A stretch of DNA of 64,000 nt from Candidatus Giovannonibacteria bacterium (GTDB taxonomy: Bacteria > Patescibacteriota > Minisyncoccia > UBA11713 > 2-01-FULL-45-33), in the NCBI GenBank assembly GCA_016432405.1, contig CP066687.1, forward strand, positions 347,040 through 411,039, in the 5' to 3' direction. Under the pieces are notes generated by a model. The model was not told the DNA's origin, did no database searches, and was given only the letters and a program-made list of their open reading frames with translations. This document shows positions 31,658 to 53,770 of the stretch, one piece after another. Numbering within the stretch: the stretch's first letter is position 1; the number at the start of each line of letters is the position of its first letter. Position numbers and translations under genes: made by a program.

Positions 31658-32842
31658 ATGCGAACCTCCTACTCCGCGCTGGCGACGTACCAGCAATGCC
31701 CGCAGAAGTTTAAATTTGAAGTAATAGACAAAATAAAAGCGCCAAAGTCGCCGGAGGCGCTTTTTGGAAGTTCCATGCATGGGGCGCTTAAATTTATGTT
31801 TTCGCGCGACCCTCTGTTCCCCACCCTAGACGAGGTTTTAATTAATTTTTCCGAGAATTGGAAAAATGCCGCAGCCAAAGCGTCCAAATCCTTGGCATCA
31901 GAACTCGCGAAAATCTACGACGAAAGCGGGCGGAAGATGCTCAAAGAGTTTTTTAAATCAAACCCGCCGTGGAATTTCTCCGTCGTGGACACGGAATCAC
32001 GCTTTGAGGTTTTACTGTCGGACACCCAGACCCAGGAAACTCATATTTTGGCCGGCATCATAGACCGGATTGATAAAATCGGCGACGGCGAATATGAAAT
32101 TATAGATTATAAAACGAATAGAAAGCTCCCATCGCAGGAGGCGGCCGACCGGAATCTACAGATGTCGCTTTACCATATGGCGCTTACGCGCAGATGGCCA
32201 AGCATTTCTCCGGATAAAATCAAGCTCTCGCTTTATTTTTTAAAACACGACGAAAAAATATCTTCAAAAAGATCCGCGGAAAATTTAAAGACCACGAGGG
32301 ATTCCGTTTTAAAAACAATCAGGCAGATAAGCCAAAGCCAGGCGCAAGATAACTTCCCCACCATTGTCTCCAAGCTTTGCGACTGGTGCCCCTATAAGCC
32401 GATTTGTCCGGCCTGGAGGCATTTATATGAAAAAACAGAATACCCTGCTCCAGATGAGGCAGCATTGCAGAGCGCGCTTAGGGAATATTTTACAATCAAA
32501 GAAACGGACAATAAAAACGCGGCGCGCGTTAAAGAATTGCAAGAGATTATAAAAACCTATATGGATGCCCAGAAGATTGACCGCGTTTTTGACGAACGCG
32601 GATATTATATTTCAAAAAAACTTCAACAGAGGTTTAAATATGATTTTGACAAGGTAAAAGAAATTTTAACCGCCGCTGGTTTGGAAAGCGCGTGGCAGAG
32701 CATATTGGAAGCGGACGATAAAAAACTAAAGATAATTCTTAAAACCCTCTCCCCCGCCCTCCGTGCCCAGATTGAATCGCAAAAGATTTTAGCAAAAGAA
32801 TTTATCGTTTTAACTCCCTCATCAAAGCCGGCGAAAAAATAA
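31658..32842 (+). CDS. PD-(D/E)XK nuclease with a 4-Cys cluster (Cas4 / RecB / AddB-nuclease-like), standalone
   Basis: N-terminal Cys (YQQCPQKF). GIIDRID and EIIDYKT give the D…ExK core. QMSLY is the RecB-family QhxxY motif. C-terminal CDWCPYKPIC. Confidence 0.6.
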   Translation: MRTSYSALATYQQCPQKFKFEVIDKIKAPKSPEALFGSSMHGALKFMFSRDPLFPTLDEVLINFSENWKNAAAKASKSLASELAKIYDESGRKMLKEFFKSNPPWNFSVVDTESRFEVLLSDTQTQETHILAGIIDRIDKIGDGEYEIIDYKTNRKLPSQEAADRNLQMSLYHMALTRRWPSISPDKIKLSLYFLKHDEKISSKRSAENLKTTRDSVLKTIRQISQSQAQDNFPTIVSKLCDWCPYKPICPAWRHLYEKTEYPAPDEAALQSALREYFTIKETDNKNAARVKELQEIIKTYMDAQKIDRVFDERGYYISKKLQQRFKYDFDKVKEILTAAGLESAWQSILEADDKKLKIILKTLSPALRAQIESQKILAKEFIVLTPSSKPAKK

Positions 32843-40068: not shown

Positions 40069-41112
40069 TTACTCCAACTCTTCTGGCTTGTCCAGCAGCG
40101 CCGGCTCGTATTCGCCGCCACGGCCTGCTATCCGTAAAACGTCTTTGTCTATCTTTTTGAATTCTTTTGAGGCGCTGTTGTATGCACTTACCGTAAGTCC
40201 CAGATTTTTGCCGATTTTATTCATAAAGTCCTCGTAGCTTATGAGATGCTTCCCGAGTTCTTCCACCCGTTTTTTTATCTCTTTTGCCGATTCTTCAATT
40301 TGAAGTGCTTTAAGCCCCTGAAGCACGGTCTGCAGATACGCCAAAAACGAAGTCGGTGAGACGATAATCACTTTTTTTTCTTTGAAAGCGTATTCAATAA
40401 GGTCCCTGGTATTCACCTTAACTGCCCCCACCTGCGCTACCAGGAGGTCATAATAAATCGCCTCGTGAGGTATGAACATAAACGCGAATTCCATTGTCCC
40501 CTCCTCCGGCTTTACGTATTTTGAGGTTTCGTCAATCCGCATCTTAAGGTCGTTCCGGAACGCGCGCTCCAGCCGCTCTTTTTCCGCCGGGTCGCGCTCT
40601 TCGGCAAGCCGGTTATAATTTTCCAGCGAAAATTTTGAGTCAATGGGGATAATTTTGTTTTTGACAAAAACAACCGCGTCCACGATTGTCCCGTCGGGGA
40701 AGGGATACTGCATCTGGTAGCTTCCCGGAGGCAGGACGTTTTTAAGCAGAGTTTCAAGATAATATTCCCCCAGGACGCCGCGCTGTTTGGGGTTTTTTAA
40801 GATGTCCTGCAGGTTCTGGAGCTGGTCGGCGAAATTGACCACCTGCCGGTTTGTTTCGTCCAGCTTGGTGAGCCGCTCGGTGACATCGCGGATGATTTTT
40901 GCCGATTCGCCGAACTGGCTCTGGAGTATTTTGGTGGACTCTCCCATTTTCTGGTCCACTGCCCGCGCAAGCTCGTTTATCTGGTTCTGGAGCATCAGCA
41001 TCGCCTGCCCACCATCGCCTTCGCCGCTCCGTTTTTTCGCGAAAAAATAAAAAATAACCGCCCCTATGGCAATCCCCGCCAAAACCGCGGCCAATAAAAC
41101 AATCTCATTCAT
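40069..41112 (-). CDS. rmuC: DNA recombination protein RmuC
   Basis: N-terminal TM helix, long coiled-coil and the RmuC C-terminal domain (FAFMFIPHEAIYYDLL). Confidence 0.75.
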   Translation of the reverse strand: MNEIVLLAAVLAGIAIGAVIFYFFAKKRSGEGDGGQAMLMLQNQINELARAVDQKMGESTKILQSQFGESAKIIRDVTERLTKLDETNRQVVNFADQLQNLQDILKNPKQRGVLGEYYLETLLKNVLPPGSYQMQYPFPDGTIVDAVVFVKNKIIPIDSKFSLENYNRLAEERDPAEKERLERAFRNDLKMRIDETSKYVKPEEGTMEFAFMFIPHEAIYYDLLVAQVGAVKVNTRDLIEYAFKEKKVIIVSPTSFLAYLQTVLQGLKALQIEESAKEIKKRVEELGKHLISYEDFMNKIGKNLGLTVSAYNSASKEFKKIDKDVLRIAGRGGEYEPALLDKPEELE

Positions 41113-41141
41113 AAAACCAGTTTAGCATAATACATTTATTT

Positions 41142-41213
41142 TTGGACCCGGGGAGAATCGAACTCCCGTCTGCCGCGTGCAAAGCGGCCGTTCTGCCATT
41201 GGACTACGGGCCC
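41142..41213 (-). tRNA. tRNA-Ala (anticodon TGC)
   Basis: Hand fold: acceptor gggcccg/cgggtcc with the G3:U70 Ala identity pair, anticodon loop ttTGCac, T-loop ttcgatt. Confidence 0.8.
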
Positions 41214-41247
41214 TCGGCATAAAGAATACATTATTTATCGGGAAAAA

Positions 41248-41961
41248 TCAAAGCCGGAGGAGCGCTGCGGCGAAATTTCCGGCCAAGAGGCCGAAAATAA
41301 GCGGGTCCAAAGAAGTGAAATAACTTAAAAGCACGGCGAAGGCGCCGACAAGCACTCCGTAGGCGGCGGCGCTTTTTCGGGACGAAAAAGCGGAGGTAAC
41401 CGGTTCAATGAGCATTACTGCCATAAAAAAAATCAATGTCCCGTCAAAAAGCTGTGTGGAAAAGAGCCCCAAAGCATAAACCGCCAAAAACGGCAAAACA
41501 ATGCGCCATTTGTTTATTTTCCATACAATGAATACCCCGACCAGAAGCAGGGTGATTAAACTCAATGTGTTTGTGCCTGCCAAAGACGGCGCCCACCATG
41601 AAATTGACGGTGTAAAAAAATAAAGAATCCCCAGTGAAAACGCGGCTGGGTTGAAAATATGCCGTCCCTTATTCCAGTGGAGCGCCTGCTTGCCAAAAAC
41701 CGCCAAAAACGCCAATGCGGCCGCATAAGCGGCGTTTGCCGCCGGAGCGGCGATTAATCCTAAGATAAGGCCCGAAATCAGAGATGAGGTCGGGAAATAC
41801 CAAATTTTACGCTTTAAAAAAGTCCAGAGAAGGTCAAAAGCCGCGTAAAACGCAACGATTAAAAACCCCCACAAAATGCGTTCAGGTTCGCCCAAAGCGA
41901 AAGCGGCGAGGACCAGCATCAGCGCCAAACAGCCGACCATAAAGGGTTTGATCGGCGGCAT
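41248..41961 (-). CDS. Polytopic membrane protein (6-7 TM helices)
   Basis: The HIFNPAAF motif is reminiscent of NqrB/RnfD-type proteins but the protein is much shorter. Function uncertain. Confidence 0.35.
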   Translation of the reverse strand: MPPIKPFMVGCLALMLVLAAFALGEPERILWGFLIVAFYAAFDLLWTFLKRKIWYFPTSSLISGLILGLIAAPAANAAYAAALAFLAVFGKQALHWNKGRHIFNPAAFSLGILYFFTPSISWWAPSLAGTNTLSLITLLLVGVFIVWKINKWRIVLPFLAVYALGLFSTQLFDGTLIFFMAVMLIEPVTSAFSSRKSAAAYGVLVGAFAVLLSYFTSLDPLIFGLLAGNFAAALLRL

Positions 41962-41964
41962 GGA

Positions 41965-42147
41965 TTATTTTTTGCCTAAAATTCTGAACATTTTGGTGCC
42001 GCATTTCCCGCAAGTTCCTGTCATTGCCCGGCGCTGCACTCCTCCTTTTCCTTTCATCGCCACCTCTCTGGGGTTTGTCATATTGCGTTTGTCGCGGCAT
42101 TTTACGCAATATGCCTGAACCGGTTCGTTTTGCTGGTTTCCAGCCAT
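41965..42147 (-). CDS. Small zinc-ribbon protein (60 aa)
   Basis: CVKCRDK…CGKCGTK, two CxxC pairs. Confidence 0.35.
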   Translation of the reverse strand: MAGNQQNEPVQAYCVKCRDKRNMTNPREVAMKGKGGVQRRAMTGTCGKCGTKMFRILGKK

Positions 42148-42295
42148 AGTATTAAAAAACTGTTATAAATAAGGGTTTTTGGACCTTTACCGCCTTTGGC
42201 GCGGCTTTAAGCCATCTTAGCACAATTTACGAATAAATAAGCGTGAGTTATTCACAAGCGGCTTCAAAATTGCTAGGATTGAAATTAACAAATTT

Positions 42296-42501
42296 GGGTG
42301 TGTAGTTCAGTGGTAGAACGCTGTCCTGACCTGCCCGCCGAACAAACCAAAATTTTGGATGCGTAGTTCAGTGGTAGAACGCTGTCCTGATAAGACAGAG
42401 GTCGGAGGTTCGATCCCTCCCGCATCCATAATCCAAAATTTTGGGTCGGCTTTGGCAGGCGGGTAAGACAGAGGTCCCAGGTTCGATCCCTGGCACACCC
42501 A
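42296..42501 (+). tRNA. Split tRNA-Ile (GAT): exon 1 at 42296..42329, exon 2 at 42464..42501, with a 134-nt insert in the anticodon
   Basis: The exons join to a 72-nt cloverleaf (acceptor gggtgtg/cacaccc, T-stem ccagg/cctgg) with anticodon loop ctGA|Taa. The insert contains a second complete tRNA. Confidence 0.5.
42357..42428 (+). tRNA. tRNA-Ile (anticodon GAT), nested inside the split tRNA
   Basis: Hand fold: acceptor ggatgcg/cgcatcc, D-stem gttc/gaac, anticodon stem ctgtc/gacag, loop ctGATaa, T-arm ggagg-ttcgatc-cctcc. Confidence 0.85.
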
Positions 42502-43373
42502 TAAAATAAAAGCACTTTTTCTTTTGTCCCGGGTCTCGAATTGAAGCTTCCGAGACCAACGCTTCACGTCAAAAATGACGCGATCGACACTTTAATTGTT
42601 GGACGCTCCGACGAAAAGTCGGAGTTGAGTACAAAAATTAAAATTGAAACTCCACGACCAGCTTCCGCTAGCCGTGCCTTGTTACGACTTACTCCCTGTC
42701 ATCCCGCCATCCTTATTCCCCGCTAAGCGGGACTTTTGGGTCGGCGGGACTTCCTTGAGTTGACGGGCGGTGAGTACAAGACTCGAGAACGTATTCACCG
42801 CAGTATAGCTGACCTGCGATTACTAGCGATTCCGTCTTCATGCGCTCGAGTTGCAGAGCGCAATCCGAACTGGGCCGGCCTTTGGTGAGATTAGCTCCGC
42901 CTCGCGGCTTCGCGACTCATTGTGGACGGCATTGTAGCACGTGTGTAGCCCAGGGCATCAAAGGGCCATGCTGACTTGGCGTCATCCCCGCCTTCCTCCC
43001 CGCGGTGCGGGGCAGTCTCTTGTGACACTTGTAACACAAAATAGGGGTTGCGTTCGTTGCCCCACTTAAGGGAACAGCTCAAGCCACGAACTGACGACAG
43101 CCATGCAGCACCTGTCCCGACGTCCTTGTGAGACGCACGCCTTTCGGCGGGCTTATCGTCGGGATTTCAAGCCCTGGTGAGGTTTTTCGTTTAACATCGA
43201 ATTGAACCACATGCTCCACCGCTTGTGCGAGTCCCCGTCTATTCCTTTGAGTTTTAAACTTGCGTTCGTACTTCCCAGGCGGATGACTTAACGCGTTAGC
43301 TTCGCCACTCGAAGGGTCGATACTTCCAATGGCTAGTCATCATCGTTTAGGGCGTGGACTACAAGGGTATCTA

Positions 43374-44003
43374 CAAATTTGTTACAACTCAATTTTACTA
43401 ATCGGTGCTAATTTTTGGAGTCAAGATTGGTGCTTGACAAATAAATTTTTATATGCTATGCTTGATATGGAGGTGATTTATGCTTGTATGGATTTGTGAG
43501 AAAACCGGGCCGCAAGGTTTAGCCCGACTTGTCTACAAAGAGTTCCTCGCGTGGATGCTCCTTGCGTCTTTGCTTGGTCAGGTTTATCTTTTGCTCCGGT
43601 AGAACCGAGGATCAAGCGATAAGAGGGAATGGAATTAAACGCTATTCCCTCTTTTTTATTTCCAAAAATTAGCACCGATTTTTTCTTGAGTGAGCAGAAT
43701 ATTTCTATCTGCTTCTGCATATCGCTATGCAGTTCGGACTATATCATGTCGCCTTTTCGGCGACCTCGGCGTATAGTCTCTACGGGGTCATGTCCGAAAC
43801 TAAGTGTCGGACAGCGGACTTCCCTCGGGATTGTCCTCCGACGCTTCGGCCGGAGGGGTTTCCCCGATATAGCTCCGACGAAAACCTCTCGGTTTTGTCG
43901 GAGTCCGACTTCACTATTAAAATAAATAGTGCGTCGGACCAAGTTTTTTATCCTCGGAATTTATTCCGAGGGGACTAAGCTGCCTTGTAAACAGCATTTG
44001 TTA
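43374..44003 (-). other. Intron-like insertion in the 16S gene at the h24 loop (E. coli position about 788/789)
   Basis: It interrupts the universally conserved GGAT|TAGATACCC block. The 3' two-thirds is dense in hairpins (for example ctccgacgaaaacc/ggttttgtcggag and cctcggaa/ttccgagg). No LAGLIDADG, GIY-YIG or HNH ORF is present. Confidence 0.6.
43407..43673 (+). mobile_element. Cassette with terminal inverted repeats (gctaatttttgg … ccaaaaattagc) carrying promoter, sORF and terminator, embedded in the 16S insertion and antisense to the rRNA
   Basis: TTGACA at 43434-43439, 17-nt spacer, TATGCT. SD ggaggtg and an ATG at 43480 open a 40-codon ORF running to TAG at 43602. Terminator agagggaat…attccctct plus T6. 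Paralog at 56433..56795. Confidence 0.5.
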
Positions 44004-44715
44004 ATCCTTTTTGATCCCCACGCTTTCGTGTTTCAGGGTCAGGAATGCCCCAGCAAGCTGCCTTCGCCTTTGGTGTTCCCCACGATATCAACGGATTTCA
44101 CCCCTACACCGTGAGTTCCGCTTGCCTCTGGCATCCTCCTAGTTTTGCCGTTTCCCGCCCATCTCTCCGGTTAAGCCGGAGTTTTTAAAACGGGACTAAC
44201 AAAACCCCCTACACACCCTTTACGCCCAGTAAATCCGGATAACGCTCGGGCTCCTCGTATTACCGCGGCTGCTGGCACGAGGTTAGCAAGCCCTTATTCT
44301 TAGGGTACAGTCATTTTTTTCCTCCCTTAAAAAAGCAGTTTACGCCCCGAAGGGCTTCCTCCTGCACGCGGCGTCGCTCGATCAGGCTTTCGCCCATTGT
44401 CGAATATTCTCGGCTGCTGCCACCCGTAGGTGTATGGACCGTTCTCAGTTCCATTGGTGGGGGCCAAGCTCTCACTCCCCCTAGCCGTCGTCGCCTTGGT
44501 GGGCCATTACCCCGCCAACAAGCTGATAGCCCGCAGGCCTCTCCCAGAGCCAATCTAAGTGTTTTAATCTCACGATACTATCGGGAATTAGCTCCGCTTT
44601 CGCGGAGTTATGCCCGTCTCTGGGGTGAGTTCCTACGTGTTACTACCCCGTCTGCCACTATCCCGCACCTTTTATTGCTAAAGGGTGCGGGACCGTATGA
44701 CTTGCATGCCTTATC

Positions 44716-44755
<40 letters not shown>

Positions 44756-45058
44756 AATAAGAAAAATTTCTTGCGAAATTTTTCTACTACGGGACAAAAG
44801 AAAAAATGCTCAAAATTTAACTGACTTAATTTTTTGGTGCAATTTTCTAAATTTTCAAGGTTCTCTTTTTGGGTCAAAACTCCTCAACAGGGCTCGGAGT
44901 AAATAAACCCGCGATAAGACCCCAAAGATCCTATCGCGGATTTACTATGCTAATTTTTCAAAATAGATTCAAAATAGATTAAAAGGTATCTGTGCCTCCG
45001 GCCATCTCAATATAAGTTAACCTATAATAATTCCATTATACTCGCCTAAAAAACGCCG

Positions 45059-46291
45059 TCAAGGGTCTGTTTCCACAGCGTTTTCCTTGGCTATTTTGGC
45101 GTATTCCAGAGCGCTTTTCCTGATTTTTCGTTCCATTGTCTTGTAATTTATCTCAACCAGCCCAAACCGCTGCGTAAAACCGCTATCCCATTCAAAATTA
45201 TCCAAAAGCGACCAATAAAAATAACCCCTTACATCTACGCCCTCGGAAGTGGCTTGATAAATCCAGCGCAGCATTTCTTTAATAAACCTTTCTCTATAGA
45301 TATCTCCTGCGTCAGCTACGCCATTCTCGGTAATAAATATCGGTTTTCCATAACGCGCCGCGCGTTTCAAAAGATGATAAATTCCTTCCGGGTAAATCCA
45401 CCACCCAATATCGCTTACCCAATCATTAGGATTTTTTAATTCAATTGGCCCCCAACGGCCTTTGCCTAATTTCAAATTAATAACATCGGTATGGTAGTAC
45501 TGGATGCCAATAAAATCAAATTTATTGTTTAACGTGGCGAAAAATCTCCAATTTCTGACATAATCTAAAATTTTTATCAGTAACCAATTCCACGGCAAAT
45601 TTTTATATGGAGTCATGTGTACAGCGTAATTAGCCGTCCCAACTAATGCTCCGTCGTTAACTTTATGAATAATATCATAAGCTTGACGATGTGCCGCCAT
45701 TAAATTTTTAAATGCGCGATTAGCGCGGGTTAGGTTTTTTACTTGCGGCGGTCTGGAGCCCTGTATATACCCCAACCCCACAAAAGTCCCGGGCTCATTA
45801 AGAGGCATCCAATATGTGACACTTTTTAACGATCGTACGATTTTGTCGACATAGCGAGTGAAATCATCTATTGTTTTTTTGTTTTCCCAGCCGCCTTGTT
45901 TGGCAACCCAAACCGGCAAAGTCCAGTGCCAAAGCGTCACAAACGGCTCAATCCCCCGCTCGCGCAAAGCGTCAATCACTTCCTGATAATGCGCGATTTC
46001 TTTTTCATTAAATTTTCCTTCCTCCGGCTCAATCCGCGACCACTCTATTGAAAAGCGATGCGCGTTGTGGCCGAGCGATTTTGCAATATCAAAATCTTCG
46101 CGGAAACGGTTGTAATGGTCGCAGGCGCGACCGGATTCTTCGTGTCTAGTAACTTTCTCCCACTCCGACCAATCATTATGATTTCCTCCCTCAACTTGAT
46201 GCGCGGAGGTCGCCGCCCCCCAGAAAAACCCCGCAGGAAAAGTCAAACGACTTTCCAACGGGGCAAGATTTTTTGGAGATTGAAGTTTCAT
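45059..46291 (-). CDS. Beta-glucosidase, glycoside hydrolase family 1
   Basis: FPAGFFWGAATSAHQVEGG N-terminal signature, NEP acid/base and ITENG nucleophile. Confidence 0.85.
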   Translation of the reverse strand: MKLQSPKNLAPLESRLTFPAGFFWGAATSAHQVEGGNHNDWSEWEKVTRHEESGRACDHYNRFREDFDIAKSLGHNAHRFSIEWSRIEPEEGKFNEKEIAHYQEVIDALRERGIEPFVTLWHWTLPVWVAKQGGWENKKTIDDFTRYVDKIVRSLKSVTYWMPLNEPGTFVGLGYIQGSRPPQVKNLTRANRAFKNLMAAHRQAYDIIHKVNDGALVGTANYAVHMTPYKNLPWNWLLIKILDYVRNWRFFATLNNKFDFIGIQYYHTDVINLKLGKGRWGPIELKNPNDWVSDIGWWIYPEGIYHLLKRAARYGKPIFITENGVADAGDIYRERFIKEMLRWIYQATSEGVDVRGYFYWSLLDNFEWDSGFTQRFGLVEINYKTMERKIRKSALEYAKIAKENAVETDP

Positions 46292-50702: not shown

Positions 50703-51359
50703 CTATTTTTTAAACACTATAAATTTAAAACCGGTAAAATTCCAGATAAGCACGGCGATGTTGGCGATAAATTTCGCGTAATTCAGCCATTTTGACGACC
50801 CGACCGTCTCAATGATTGAAGCCGGCGCGTAAGTGGTGAGAACCACAATCAACACGCTGTTTATAATAAGTCCGCCAACGCCAACGGCGAAAAATTTTGG
50901 GAAGTCATGAAACAAGCTGATTTTGTCCGAAACTAAGTTTCGGTCAGTAAGTGACCGAAACTTAGTTTCGGACGTTTCGGACGAAAAAACCCAGAGTTTG
51001 TTCCACAAGTATCCGTTTATCACCGCAATTAAAAATCCGGGCGCATTGACCCAGCCGACAATTATGCCGGCGGTCACGCCTGTAAGATAACTTGTCAGGT
51101 TGAGAACCGCAAAGTCAATCGCCGTGGAAAGAAACCCCGCGGCGGCGTAGCGGCCGAATTGCGAAAAAAACGGTTTCACTCGCGCCCCGAGAAAGTCCCC
51201 GAACCAAACCCCCGCCGCCCAGAGAACCGGCAGTAAAACCAAAGCGGCAAGATTTTGGTACGGGAAAGAAATTTTTAAAAAATACAAAATTGCCAGCGTA
51301 AGCGCCCCGGTCAAAATTCCCGCAACCGCCCCGATCCAATAATCTTTTTTGATAATCAT
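50703..51359 (-). CDS. GtrA-like membrane protein
   Basis: 4-TM GtrA-type topology. It contains an in-frame palindromic insertion. Confidence 0.5.
   Translation of the reverse strand: MIIKKDYWIGAVAGILTGALTLAILYFLKISFPYQNLAALVLLPVLWAAGVWFGDFLGARVKPFFSQFGRYAAAGFLSTAIDFAVLNLTSYLTGVTAGIIVGWVNAPGFLIAVINGYLWNKLWVFSSETSETKFRSLTDRNLVSDKISLFHDFPKFFAVGVGGLIINSVLIVVLTTYAPASIIETVGSSKWLNYAKFIANIAVLIWNFTGFKFIVFKK
50925..50973. repeat. Dimeric palindromic element gtccgaaactaagtttcggtc-agtaag-tgaccgaaacttagtttcggac inside the GtrA-like gene
   Basis: Encodes SETKFRSLTDRNLVSD on the minus strand. Same family as 37424..37460. Confidence 0.75.
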
Positions 51360-53770
51360 AATAATGCCTGATGCCTCCTTCTAATTTCCTCCTCTACTTC
51401 CTCGCGCGGGCGCGAGTATTTGGAGCGCGAGAGCTCTTTTATGTAATCGGCTGTATCCCCGCGGCCGCTTTCCGGAGGCAGAGTTTTTATATTAAAGGGC
51501 TTTGAGGTCTGGCCGTCAATCAGCAATTTGAGATAAGCGCTGAAATTATCAATGTTTAAAAGGTCCTCCGCGGAAAACACCGGCTGGAATTGTTTTTCCA
51601 TATACTCGGCGTCGTCGGAGCCGATTCTAAAAGAGCAGATGGAGCCGACGTTTCCGAAAATCGCCTTTTTAATGTCCTCGTCAAGCTGGCCTATGAACTG
51701 GTGCGCAACTATCATGTTCAATTTATATTTTCTCGCCTCGGAAAGGATTGTGGCAATGGATTTTGTGGTCACGTTTTGAAACTCGTCAATATAGAGGTAA
51801 AAATCGCCGCGCTCTGCCTCCGGTCTGTCCACTCTTGATAGCGAGGCCATTAAAATCTTGCTAACTATAATGAGCCCCAAAAGATTTGAATTGAGCTCGC
51901 CGAGTTTCCCCTTGGATAAATTCAAAAGAAGGATTTTTTTCTGGTCCATAACGCCGCGCAGATTAAAGGCGGACTTTTGCTGGGCGATTATCGGGCGCAT
52001 AATGTCATTGGATAAAAATCCGTCAAACTTGCTCACAACGTAAGTCGCCATGTTGGCAATGGATTGCTCTCCCGAGGCGCGCTCCGCAATCTGCTTCCAA
52101 AAGGTCTCCACGACTATATTTTTGGAGCGCGAGAGCTTAAAGTCGCGGAAGGATTTATCCGCGAAAACCCTCTGGATTTCCAAAAGCGTGTTGCCGCTCT
52201 CCAGGTCTTCCATAACCAGCATCGCCGCGTTTCTGAAGTATTGCTCAAACATCGGCCCTCCGGCAACCGACATATTAAAAAGCTTGTTAAAAATTTCCAA
52301 AAGCTCGTTGACGATTAAACTTTTCTGCTCGGGATAGCGGGGGTCAAACTCCAGCATGTTGAGGCCCATCGGGCGCGCAACATCCCCGGGGTCAAAATAA
52401 ATTACGTCATTTGCGCGCTCTGCAGGAATTAAAGGCAGGATTTTTTCAATAAGGTCGCCGTGCGGGTCCACAATTGCCACCCCCTCGCCGGCCAAAATGT
52501 CCTGACTGACCATGTTTTGCATAAGCGCGGATTTTCCGGTGCCCGTCTGCCCAATGATGTAAAAATGCCTTCTGCGGTCGTCTTTTTTTAGCCGCACTTC
52601 GCGCCCCTCGCCCCGGAATGAGCTTTTGCCGAGCAAAACGCCCTCTTTCGGCAAATTGACCGGCGGAGCGGACTCTTTCGCTTTTAAGGTGCGCACGGAG
52701 GGAGCGGCCTTTTTCAGATATGGAAAATGGTAAATGCTCGCGATTTCCTCAACGTTTAAAATTATTTTGGCTTCTTCGTCAAAAAGGCGGAAAGAAAAAC
52801 GCTCAACCAATTTTCTTAAACGTTTTCCACCAAGCTCTTTAATTTTCAGGCCGTTGCCCTCCGGATTTTCATACTGCAAAAAAGCCCCGGCAAGCCCTTT
52901 CAAAATCTTATCAGCCGAGAGCGCGCTCTCGGCTGAGGCAAGAATGCGTATATTGCATTCAAACGCCGGCTTTGAGGCCTTTTCTTCAAAAAGCTTTGCC
53001 GTTTCTTCGTCGTAACTTGCGCCGCTTTTTTCTTTACCGATCTTTGACGGGGAAAAAATTTTCAAAAACGCTTTCCAAAAACCGCTTTTGCCCAGCGCTT
53101 CTTTTTTACTCTCCCCTTCTTTCATTTTTTTTGCCGCCCCATGCGCGCGGCTTTTGATATTTTCCCCTCCGACTCTCAAAATTATCTGTAAAGCCGCGCC
53201 CTCGCCGAATTCTTTTATGCTGGAGAGAGCCGAAGTTATCGTATCCAACTGATCGCTTCCGGATTTCTGATAGGTTTTTATGGGCAGCAGTTCTGATTCG
53301 GCGGAAAACGCGGAGGCGCCGGCTGTTGCCCCCTCTAAATTGAAAATATTATAATCAGGCCTTCTTTCTATTTTGGCTTCCGGAAAGGCGCCGTGAAGTT
53401 GATTTTGAAGCAGAATTTCATATGCTCTCGGGAAAGCTATGTAGAAAAATATCTCGCTCCCGCGGTTGTGCGCGGCGATCTCAAACGCAAACTGCGGATT
53501 TCCTAAAATTTTGCCGGCGATTCCTCTTCTTTGAACTCCGCCCAAGCCGGTGAGAAAATTTTCCATTTTTAAAATAAAATCCTTCGCCGCCTGCGCCTCC
53601 CCCGCTTTTTCGCCTCTTGCCTCCGGGATACTGACCAGATAAAGTCCCAGGCCAAGCCCGGCGCTTACCCCACTGGAGCGCCTTTCCCTTTTTATCCAAA
53701 TTACGGAAAAAAGCCAGAGCCAGAGCGCCAGCGTTATAAATAAAAAAAGGTAGAAAGCGGCCGGATTCAT
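51356..53770 (-). CDS. VirD4/TraG/TraD-like type IV coupling-protein-family ATPase (two TM helices plus AAA-like domain)
   Basis: Walker A YIIGQTGTGKSAL, IVDPHGDL and Walker B FYLYIDEFQN, then …IVAHQFIGQLDED. 804 aa. Confidence 0.6.
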   Translation of the reverse strand: MNPAAFYLFLFITLALWLWLFSVIWIKRERRSSGVSAGLGLGLYLVSIPEARGEKAGEAQAAKDFILKMENFLTGLGGVQRRGIAGKILGNPQFAFEIAAHNRGSEIFFYIAFPRAYEILLQNQLHGAFPEAKIERRPDYNIFNLEGATAGASAFSAESELLPIKTYQKSGSDQLDTITSALSSIKEFGEGAALQIILRVGGENIKSRAHGAAKKMKEGESKKEALGKSGFWKAFLKIFSPSKIGKEKSGASYDEETAKLFEEKASKPAFECNIRILASAESALSADKILKGLAGAFLQYENPEGNGLKIKELGGKRLRKLVERFSFRLFDEEAKIILNVEEIASIYHFPYLKKAAPSVRTLKAKESAPPVNLPKEGVLLGKSSFRGEGREVRLKKDDRRRHFYIIGQTGTGKSALMQNMVSQDILAGEGVAIVDPHGDLIEKILPLIPAERANDVIYFDPGDVARPMGLNMLEFDPRYPEQKSLIVNELLEIFNKLFNMSVAGGPMFEQYFRNAAMLVMEDLESGNTLLEIQRVFADKSFRDFKLSRSKNIVVETFWKQIAERASGEQSIANMATYVVSKFDGFLSNDIMRPIIAQQKSAFNLRGVMDQKKILLLNLSKGKLGELNSNLLGLIIVSKILMASLSRVDRPEAERGDFYLYIDEFQNVTTKSIATILSEARKYKLNMIVAHQFIGQLDEDIKKAIFGNVGSICSFRIGSDDAEYMEKQFQPVFSAEDLLNIDNFSAYLKLLIDGQTSKPFNIKTLPPESGRGDTADYIKELSRSKYSRPREEVEEEIRRRHQALL

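Follow-up and report, generated by a model that had tools for sequence, protein, structure and literature searches.

A complete tRNA-Ile(GAT) gene inside the anticodon of a second tRNA-Ile(GAT) gene: a candidate tRNA-carrying cassette in Patescibacteria

The nested locus and its uninterrupted counterparts

The DNA investigated here (the window, 64 kb in length) is part of a contig of at least 651 kb from a metagenome-assembled genome (MAG) of Candidatus Giovannonibacteria, a member of the Patescibacteria or candidate phyla radiation (CPR). It contains two tRNA-Ile(GAT) genes that share a single locus (42296-42501; Table 1). An intact inner gene (42357-42428) is located within a 134-nt insert (42330-42463) that splits an outer gene between the anticodon nucleotides 35 and 36. 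Based on the comparison with related genomes, we consider it reasonably probable that a horizontally acquired, tRNA-carrying cassette has disabled the resident tRNA-Ile(GAT) gene and replaces it, that the outer halves represent a fresh and unspliced relic, and that the cassette spreads in a homing-like manner.

The inner tRNA-Ile(GAT) was called by ARAGORN (42356-42429) and by the Rfam tRNA model (42357-42428, 74.1 bits). The two outer halves (GGGTGTG...CTGTCCTGA at 42296-42329 and TAAGACAG...CACACCCA at 42464-42501) are distinguished from the inner gene by their own acceptor and T arm (GGGTGTG.. / ..CCCAGG..CACACCCA). Joined at A35|T36 they form a 72-nt tRNA that ARAGORN identifies as Ile(gat), and the outer cloverleaf with its 134-nt insertion in the anticodon loop is recovered by the same program in intron-overlay mode, i.e., with overlapping introns allowed. 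An alternative ARAGORN reading as Thr(GGT), in which the boundary lies one base further to the left (G|..|GT), was ruled out by the uninterrupted gene of a sister species. This gene (CCTGATAAG) fixes the junction at GA|T, thus documenting that the outer gene encodes tRNA-Ile and not tRNA-Thr.

The insert lacks an open reading frame (ORF), and 62 of its 134 nt remain outside the inner tRNA. These flanking sequences form two complementary arms. The dodecamer CCAAAATTTTGG is present at 42347-42358 and 42433-42444 and belongs to a perfect inverted repeat of 14 bp (42347-42360 with 42431-42444), and the ends of the insert (CCTGCCCGCC / GGCAGGCGGG) pair at nine of ten positions, one of them a G-U pair, with a single mismatch (8/10 at the DNA level). 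The fold of the whole 206-nt unit is far more stable than those of shuffled controls (z = -5.2; 0/200 shuffles as good). Most of this had been described in a first-pass annotation of the window: the coordinates and the sequence of both tRNAs read identically, the inner gene is intact, the dodecamer is present on both of its flanks (and is now seen to belong to the longer repeat), the insert ends are partly complementary, and each tRNA is internally consistent, so that a recombination chimera is not indicated. The proposed split between positions 35 and 36 is ambiguous from the window alone and was settled by the sister gene.

The nested unit is located between the DUF5679 gene and the 3' end of the 16S rRNA gene and is convergent with the latter. 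A promoter-like site upstream of the outer tRNA probably drives the whole unit, as judged from its match to the consensus. Its -35 element lies in DNA that is common to the sister species, and its -10 element in a window-specific leader of 33 nt, a source of which was not found in any fetched locus.

Relatives of the window were found through a neighbouring membrane protein of 237 aa and their contigs were fetched; more distant homologs of this flanking protein were not syntenic. The closest species, whose DUF5679 gene is 92% identical to that of the window (protein and DNA), is represented by ten contigs from ENA, JGI and Logan assemblies, all ten with one uninterrupted tRNA-Ile(GAT). The gene is located between the same flanks (...gttattcacaagc and aagcactttttcttttgtcccgggtc...), i.e., between DUF5679 and the 16S 3' end, and it is identical in 71 of 72 positions to the outer halves of the window joined at A35|T36. 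A second relative (DUF5679 90% identical) also harbors an uninterrupted tRNA-Ile at this locus. Since the closest relatives possess the outer tRNA in uninterrupted form, the insert represents an insertion into a resident gene. Its junctions read CCTGA|CCTGCC and GGCGGG|TAAGAC, and no bases have been duplicated or lost in comparison with the empty site. As expected for a homing element, filled and empty alleles of one site are present in related genomes and the insertion is precise. The outer tRNA and its sister differ only at position 19; the donor-type base is present there in the window, possibly as a mark of co-conversion.

In both relatives the opposite strand carries the tRNA-Ile, which follows shortly after the 3' end of the 16S gene and points in the same direction, in the usual 16S-then-tRNA-Ile order, so the nested unit of the window is inverted relative to the sister tRNA-Ile (L117-L126 and L116). 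The left junction TTTGGGTGTG is common to the window and the sisters in spite of this inversion, because the two acceptor strands are inverted repeats.

The same cassette was found in a distant species (L050, identical to L034), whose DUF5679 is only 70% identical to that of the window and whose intergenic DNA is unalignable with it. The insert is identical to that of the window in 131 of 134 positions and the inner tRNA in all 72. The outer tRNA differs and is nevertheless self-consistent, with the acceptor GGGCGAC/GTCGCCC and the T stem GAAGG/CCTTC compared with GGGTGTG/CACACCC and CCAGG/CCTGG in the window. One JGI metagenome contains both the empty-site species and the carrier L034. The absence of the cassette from the closest relatives and its near-unchanged presence in the own resident gene of a distant species indicate a horizontal spread. 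The orientation of the L050 cassette relative to DUF5679 is that of the window. Directly downstream of the nested tRNA, L050 lacks a 16S gene and encodes an HTH_3 regulator, an Endonuclease VII/His-Me finger nuclease and an N6/N4 DNA methylase (L050:2195-3836); this restriction-modification-like trio has the appearance of an island beside the tRNA.

An assembly error had been named as a possible refutation. It could arise from the repetition of tRNA cores within a metagenome, and two observations could be taken in its favor. Contigs of several runs break inside the region, and the Logan contig L001 (SRR12113432_1149) matches the window through the leader and the outer 5' half (..CCTGA), then reads TA instead of CC, and ends. 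We rejected this end as proof of an empty allele, since its deciding 31-mer contains only 2 nt of the acceptor and is common to other CPR tRNA-Ile genes; an uninterrupted forward allele within the population and de Bruijn cross-talk with those genes are equally conceivable sources, and the end is likewise uninformative about a mis-assembly. The junction between the outer 5' half and the insert of the window stems from a single assembly, the Logan contigs confirming the left flank and the outer 5' half only, and neither of two ORFs that span the nested region was on record when looked up for independent contigs. The architecture itself has been assembled independently many times. The same insert was recovered twice in the related species (L034 and L050, two JGI metagenomes), and at least eight other nested loci are seen in two or three independent assemblies (e.g., L012=L015=L064, L014=L070, L037=L062). 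Moreover, mis-joined repeats cannot create unique arm sequences. An artifact is therefore extremely improbable.

Table 1. Coordinates of the nested tRNA-Ile(GAT) unit and of flanking features in the window
Feature	Position	Strand	Basis and remarks
DUF5679 gene, synteny anchor	41965..42147	-	Pfam PF18930
Promoter-like site TTCACA-17 nt-TAGGAT with TG extension	42251..42279	+	Consensus scan only; 16 nt upstream of the outer tRNA
Leader of 33 nt, ggcttcaaaattgctaggattgaaattaacaaa	42260..42292	+	Missing in the sister species (alignment)
Outer tRNA-Ile, 5' half (nt 1-35, ending G34 A35)	42296..42329	+	Identical to the uninterrupted sister tRNA except for position 19
Left arm of the insert: outer module CCTGCCCGCCGAACAAAC, inner module CCAAAATTTT pairing with the right arm	42330..42356	+	Alignment, pair counts, RNAalifold
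Inner uninterrupted tRNA-Ile(GAT), cargo	42357..42428	+	ARAGORN, Rfam; 72/72 identical to the inner tRNA of L034/L050; presumably the working gene
Right arm of the insert: TAAT, CCAAAATTTTGG, GTCGGCTTTGGCAGGCGGG; complements the left arm, final G just before T36	42429..42463	+	
Outer tRNA-Ile, 3' half (T36 through T arm, acceptor 3' strand, discriminator A73)	42464..42501	+	Identical to the sister tRNA
Trailer of 8 nt, taaaataa	42502..42509	+	Differs from the sister flank; common sequence returns at aagcac
16S rRNA gene, 2,122 nt	42640..44761	-	Rfam RF00177, 1300 bits

Nested loci across Patescibacteria and the state of their tRNA copies

The survey of related genomes that had been proposed as a check was conducted with one genome per species and with JGI metagenomes. 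The search pattern consisted of the 5' core of tRNA-Ile, then GA, then a base other than T; ordinary tRNA-Val(GAC) genes and fortuitous matches within coding regions were removed from the counts. About 35 distinct loci exhibit the nested architecture, i.e., a tRNA-Ile 5' half ending in ..CCTGA, a short arm, and then another tRNA-Ile 5' half or a complete gene. All ten loci from named genomes belong to MAGs of Patescibacteria (Saccharibacteria, Paceibacterota, Liptonbacteria, Nomurabacteria). In about 20 of the approximately 35 loci, a complementary arm and the outer 3' half are present in addition, and the order in these complete loci is outer 5' half, arm, complete tRNA-Ile, complementary arm, outer 3' half. 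At least nine loci consist of three or more layers (L006, L009, L010, L012, L013, L014, L051, L053, L057). The arms fall into several unrelated sequence types, with left and right arms being complementary within each locus.

Insertions of a related kind are located in D and T loops of outer copies. They share the terminal motif C-Y-Y-GCCCGCC ... GGCGGG, followed by T, and contain either cargo tRNAs (L057, L053) or bare hairpins (L062, L060). Two tRNA-Val(GAC) genes are affected as well. One harbors a cassette with complementary arms of 14 bp after A35 (L053:4238-4410), and the other a D-loop insertion of about 400 nt with a GIY-YIG gene and a cargo tRNA-Val that has arms of its own (L059:1168-1675), the hairpin CTCCGACCC..GAGTCGAAGACC being repeated at both ends of this insertion. 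A tandem unit of 51 nt (5' half plus arm) differs between two and three copies (L013, L058, L039 versus L028) in otherwise identical flanks from different metagenomes. Scans of viral contigs for the arm and for interrupted 5' halves hit only phage tRNA-Val genes and, by chance, coding sequence, and thus give no indication of a viral vector. No relevant further copy of the arm (up to three mismatches allowed) or of a similar hairpin was found in the 64-kb window. Judged by their sequences, the cassettes are members of a family that occurs across Patescibacteria and targets the loops of tRNA-Ile and tRNA-Val genes.

Base pairs of the nested structure were counted in an alignment of eight type-A inserts, and RNAalifold independently predicted the same nested structure. 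The stems of the inner tRNA are 100% paired in all eight type-A cassettes and exhibit compensatory double changes in 13 pairs, whereas the outer anticodon stem shows zero compensatory changes and three of its five pairs deviate only through unpaired bases. A flawless outer tRNA would result from clean excision in four of the about 20 complete loci (window, L034, L012, L059). The remaining outer copies suffer from mismatched acceptors, destroyed T arms, extra insertions, or 3' halves that have been overwritten by the inner copy. T36 is lost in all five type-D loci, and the right arm has been deleted together with the outer 3' half in L030 (compared with L033) and L029 (compared with L032). One uninterrupted innermost tRNA is present in every complete locus except L005, and hairpins without cargo are found in outer copies and never in the innermost tRNA. 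The covariation of the inner stems and the decay of the outer copies fit a functional inner gene and a dispensable outer gene. The perfect outer halves of the window would then be explained by a young insertion, since the sister species still has the gene whole.

The exceptional locus L005 (L005:143-290, Saccharibacteria) has a single 3' acceptor strand, CAGACGC, which fits the distal 5' half (GCGTCTG) and not the proximal one (GCGAGCG), and ARAGORN detected no tRNA. It is either a dead locus or one that can be restored by the pop-out of 51 nt between 28-nt repeats.

The arms are under selection themselves. Across the eight type-A cassettes, whose inner tRNAs differ widely, the outer arm module (CCTGCCCGCCGAACAAAC and ATCGGCTTTGGCAGGCGGG) does not vary, whereas the inner arm module displays three compensated pair changes and compensated length changes. 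This contrast argues for constraint on the sequence at the ends and on the pairing inside. Selection could act on the propagation of the element, on folding or release of the inner tRNA, or on splicing.

Known systems and rival explanations

A group I core (RF00028) was not detected at 42296-42501; cmscan (E<=1) over 40500-45500 returned a match only inside the 16S gene. With respect to the end rule of group I introns, the 5' exon ends with A35 instead of U, whereas the final G of the insert (42463) is present. Neither an Rfam match to a group II intron nor an ORF was found in the insert, nor a reverse transcriptase among the window ORFs scanned. Group I introns in the anticodon loops of Patescibacteria tRNAs, position 35/36 included, have been reported together with the mis-calling of the host tRNA by annotation tools (Nakagawa et al. 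2026, PMC13011429). The nested locus resembles them in phylum, kind of host gene, position 35/36, the insert-final G and the erroneous tool call (Thr in ARAGORN). It differs by the lack of a ribozyme core, by a length of 134 nt that includes 72 nt of tRNA cargo, and by a 5' exon ending with A in place of the obligatory U. Finally, the outer genes decay in the family presented here, which argues against splicing.

A bulge-helix-bulge motif consists of two 3-nt bulges separated by a helix of 4 bp, with both cut sites in the bulges. A manual search for such a fold at the junction, one of the checks suggested by the first-pass annotation, covered three registers at the anticodon insert as well as the D-loop and T-loop relatives, and none fits. 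In the predicted folds a continuous helix runs across the two junctions, which face each other, and A35:U36 stacks on C1:G134; the best bulge-helix-bulge alternative has a 3-bp helix with bulges of 1 nt and 4 nt. EndA and RtcB are missing among the about 40 ORFs scanned in the 64-kb window, which covers part of the contig of at least 651 kb. Archaeal introns can carry a functional RNA, as in the case of the tRNA-Trp intron that encodes a C/D-box RNA. Mobile bulge-helix-bulge introns of tRNA genes and intron transposition in Thermoproteales have been reported as well (Fujishima 2010, as cited in PMC10714607). The likeness comprises short hairpin-forming insertions, their presence in several tRNA loops, multiple insertions per gene and the capacity to carry a functional RNA. 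The differences are the bacterial host and the failure of the manual bulge-helix-bulge search, and no splicing endonuclease is known or was seen among the window ORFs scanned; furthermore, the RNA that is carried duplicates the very gene that is interrupted, and interrupted copies have the look of dead genes. Split or permuted tRNAs as in Nanoarchaeum, Caldivirga and Cyanidioschyzon do not match either, because the halves are arranged in normal order on one strand, 134 nt apart and without a bulge-helix-bulge motif. Complementary sequences adjoin the halves in both cases, but the outer halves decay across the family investigated here.

Integrative elements such as phages and islands insert into tRNA genes and carry a partial copy that restores the gene. 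Anticodon-loop and T-loop sublocations of this integration were reportedly distinguished by Williams in 2002. A tRNA gene as a target, hit at its symmetric stem-loops, the compensation of the damage by imported tRNA sequence and the orphan fragments beside a working gene are common to both systems. An integrase was not found among the window ORFs scanned, nor was a crossover-segment repeat at the junctions, and the insert is unlike these elements in its 134 nt, in the complete tRNA that it carries and in its nested rather than side-by-side arrangement. Models of integrase-type integration and of a serine recombinase were rejected, since nothing is duplicated at the junctions. In twintrons and nested transposons, layered structures arise because an element contains its own target. 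The Russian-doll layering is alike, but the repeated target is here a functional host-type gene as cargo.

The free-standing GIY-YIG homing endonuclease SegB of phage T4, a protein of 221 aa with a DNA-binding domain that is encoded between genes of a tRNA cluster, recognises tRNA-gene DNA and drives the inheritance of itself and of adjacent tRNA genes (PMC2330249). The parallels are the tRNA-gene DNA target, tRNA genes that are dragged along by double-strand-break repair, and the GIY-YIG genes inside two of the interrupted tRNAs (L032, L059). In contrast to SegB, these ORFs lie inside genes, measure about 70-85 aa and comprise the catalytic domain only; they would be candidate nucleases, and a nuclease gene does not accompany the window cassette. 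The element thus fails the defining tests of group I introns, bulge-helix-bulge introns and integrative elements, and it differs from SegB-type systems and twintrons in the respects named. Full-text literature searches yielded no account of a tRNA gene that lies within the anticodon of its isoacceptor, in agreement with the earlier statement that no report is known, and none of such cassettes in CPR bacteria. The nested tRNA cassette appears to be a new kind of element.

The first-pass annotation had offered two explanations, an intron or a tRNA-carrying mobile cassette. A true intron of an undescribed bacterial type would require a protein enzyme that cuts at A35|C and G|U36, a ligase that rejoins the halves, and reverse splicing into tRNA loops as the basis of mobility; one transcript would then yield two tRNA-Ile, and the spliced outer tRNA would read ..GCUGUCCUGA joined to UAAGACAG.. 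on the GGGUGUG/CACACCC backbone. It would account for terminal arm sequences that are invariant while the inner helix covaries, and for related insertions in D, anticodon and T loops, whose main arm types end with G followed by U, in the manner of the mobile introns of Thermoproteales. It would also account for acceptor stems that are perfectly complementary despite two or three insertions (L060, L033, L053) and for the outer tRNAs that are flawless after excision (window, L034, L012, L059). Position 35/36, moreover, is a known hotspot of introns in Patescibacteria (PMC13011429). On the other hand, no bulge-helix-bulge was found in the registers tried by hand and no group I or group II signal, and the 5' exon ends with A. 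Pairing in the outer anticodon stem is lost with no compensation, in contrast to the covarying inner stem, most outer copies are defective, and the type-D family has no U36. No locus depends on the interrupted copy alone, with the exception of L005, which has no detectable intact tRNA, and bare hairpins spare the innermost tRNA throughout. The intact outer tRNA of the window, finally, is explained by the recency of the insertion, the sister gene being uninterrupted. We thus regard the intron, which lost ground through these results, as unlikely. The mobile cassette gained ground through the empty site in close relatives and the same cassette within a different outer tRNA of a distant species.

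The cassette could also be a non-autonomous hairpin transposon, i.e., a miniature inverted-repeat transposable element (MITE), a REPIN or an IS200/IS605 derivative that is moved by a transposase in trans as folded single-stranded DNA into the hairpin loops of tRNA genes, with the captured tRNA cargo making an insertion into an essential gene survivable. Elements of the IS200/IS605 type insert directly 3' of a fixed target of 4-5 nt, contain a hairpin at either end and require a Y1/HUH transposase in the genome. Invariant termini, complementary arms, a clean insertion that left no target duplication, insertions at the tips of all three tRNA stem-loops, some of them hairpins devoid of cargo, and small CCGAC..GTCGG hairpins scattered in nested loci and beside the 16S gene of the window are compatible with this scenario. 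However, no transposase was seen in the 64-kb window or beside any locus examined, and the arms occur nowhere else in the window. The 5' bases at the insertion points vary (..CTGA, ..TCAG, ..GATGG) in contrast to the fixed target of IS200/IS605, and neither arm has a hairpin of its own, the arms pairing with each other. The ends are imperfect inverted repeats (8/10 at the DNA level). Such an origin is accordingly given a low probability. A local duplication or recombination between two resident, immobile tRNA-Ile genes would be in line with the identical cores of 28 nt and 13 nt in the halves, with the gene conversion between inner and outer copies that is evident in L014, L032, L011 and L048, and with the different copy number of the 51-nt unit in L013 and L028. 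It is already contradicted by the empty site, i.e., the single uninterrupted gene at this locus in close relatives, and by the cross-species identity of the insert, which is 98% identical to that of a species with neutral DNA too divergent to be aligned with the window; a source of the arms is also missing elsewhere in the window. We consider it very unlikely.

Proposed mode of spread and flanking features

According to the scenario of a tRNA-carrying cassette, the left arm, a complete tRNA-Ile(GAT) and the complementary right arm would have been placed precisely between A35 and T36 of the resident gene. One transcript would cover the whole unit from the upstream promoter-like site, and pairing of the arms would lengthen the outer anticodon stem into an extended helix with the inner cloverleaf at the far end. 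The inner tRNA would be freed for decoding by RNase P, which acts on the 5' end, and by 3' trimming, whereas the outer halves would be a recently inactivated relic and not be rejoined. We have fair confidence in the insertion and in the relic status of the outer gene.

The spread of the cassette would occur at the DNA level by gene conversion, for which the conserved tRNA halves (34 nt and 38 nt) may provide the homology. The precise and duplication-free insertion, which is present in one lineage and near-identical in a distant one, argues for homing by double-strand-break repair, and this homing-like gene conversion is the best available inference for the route of movement. The spare tRNA would take the role that self-splicing has for mobile introns. 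Each cassette imports a new intact version of the gene that it targets and thereby remains open to further invasion, which would explain the nests with multiple layers. Repair that resolves in the wrong repeat would give rise to L005, to loci with a left arm only, and to those with homogenised inner and outer halves. The conversion may be triggered by a nuclease, and small GIY-YIG nucleases are the only candidates seen. They are encoded by ORFs of about 70-85 aa inside interrupted tRNAs (L032:460-687 and L059:1237-1440; Pfam 46 and 49.5 bits) that comprise the catalytic domain only and were the sole matches to the query in all fetched CPR DNA; the gene in L059 lies beside the cargo tRNA-Val. 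L059 and L032 might thus represent autonomous forms, and the 134-nt cassette of the window a stripped-down passenger. We tentatively propose the term "spare-gene homing cassette" for a selfish element that may invade the loops of tRNA genes and survive there by carrying a complete replacement copy rather than by splicing, a concept that is at present less likely to be correct than not.

Several observations weigh against the favored scenario. The inversion of the unit and the new 33-nt leader are not explained by simple homing. The conservation of the arms exceeds the expectation for junk and the insertions are located in the loops of a folded RNA, both of which would suit an intron that acts at the RNA level; as the relic status is deduced from sequence comparison, a spliced outer tRNA is conceivable. 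The type-A arms accompany quite different inner tRNAs, which requires either later gene conversion or arms that move independently of their cargo. GIY-YIG genes are present at only two of about 38 nested loci and are missing from the window cassette, and their closest homologs (P0041, P0042) are found in unrelated islands with no tRNA nearby, so that the link to a nuclease is anecdotal. Furthermore, a nuclease that cuts the intact tRNA-Ile would also cut the cargo, and the element would never be immune. Transposase, integrase and reverse transcriptase were not detected among the about 40 window ORFs scanned, nor was a nuclease gene with the cassette. As a separate observation, P0041 and P0042 adjoin 23S_rRNA_IVP/bAvd-like genes and toxin-antitoxin genes.

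If the scenario holds true, the cassette would exemplify a third selfish strategy, the colonisation of an essential gene by replacement, in addition to self-splicing (introns, inteins) and the restoration of gene ends (integrative islands). It would also represent a natural horizontal replacement of tRNA genes in bacteria with very small genomes. The empty site, the filled site, the intermediates of decay and the multi-layer nests provide a testable model for the interruption of structural RNA genes, which bears on the long-debated question of how split and intron-containing tRNA genes originated. If the intron were correct instead, a protein-dependent tRNA splicing system in Bacteria would be of at least equal importance. 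For genome annotation it is relevant that standard tRNA finders report the inner gene only or mis-call the outer one as Thr, and that nesting is a cause of orphan tRNA halves and of contig breaks at tRNA-Ile in Patescibacteria genomes.

Two further genes of the window have no obvious link to the tRNA locus, namely a homolog of TrwB/VirD4-like coupling proteins (weak Pfam match; 51356-53770, minus strand) and a PD-(D/E)XK nuclease (31658-32842, plus strand). A 23S gene is not present in the window, and tRNA-Ala(TGC) lies about 1 kb from the 16S gene beyond two protein genes. The 16S gene is, with 2,122 nt, longer than the model of 1,533 positions and contains a group I-like intron (43715-43937; 38.8 bits, under the Rfam cut-off of 50) and further inserted sequence. 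The 12-mer TTTTGGGTCGGC of the right arm (42439-42450) recurs in opposite sense in the 3' domain of the 16S gene (42734-42745, TTTTGGGTCGGCGGG in the text of the window), which may be due to chance or provide a hint at the origin of the arm. A hairpin (CTCCGAC-GAAAA-GTCGGAG, 42606-42624) is located between the nested unit and the 16S 3' end, where the sequence of the sister differs, and the D loops of relic tRNAs in L032 and L046 contain inserted hairpins that belong to the same family (TCCGAC-NNNN-GTCGGA).

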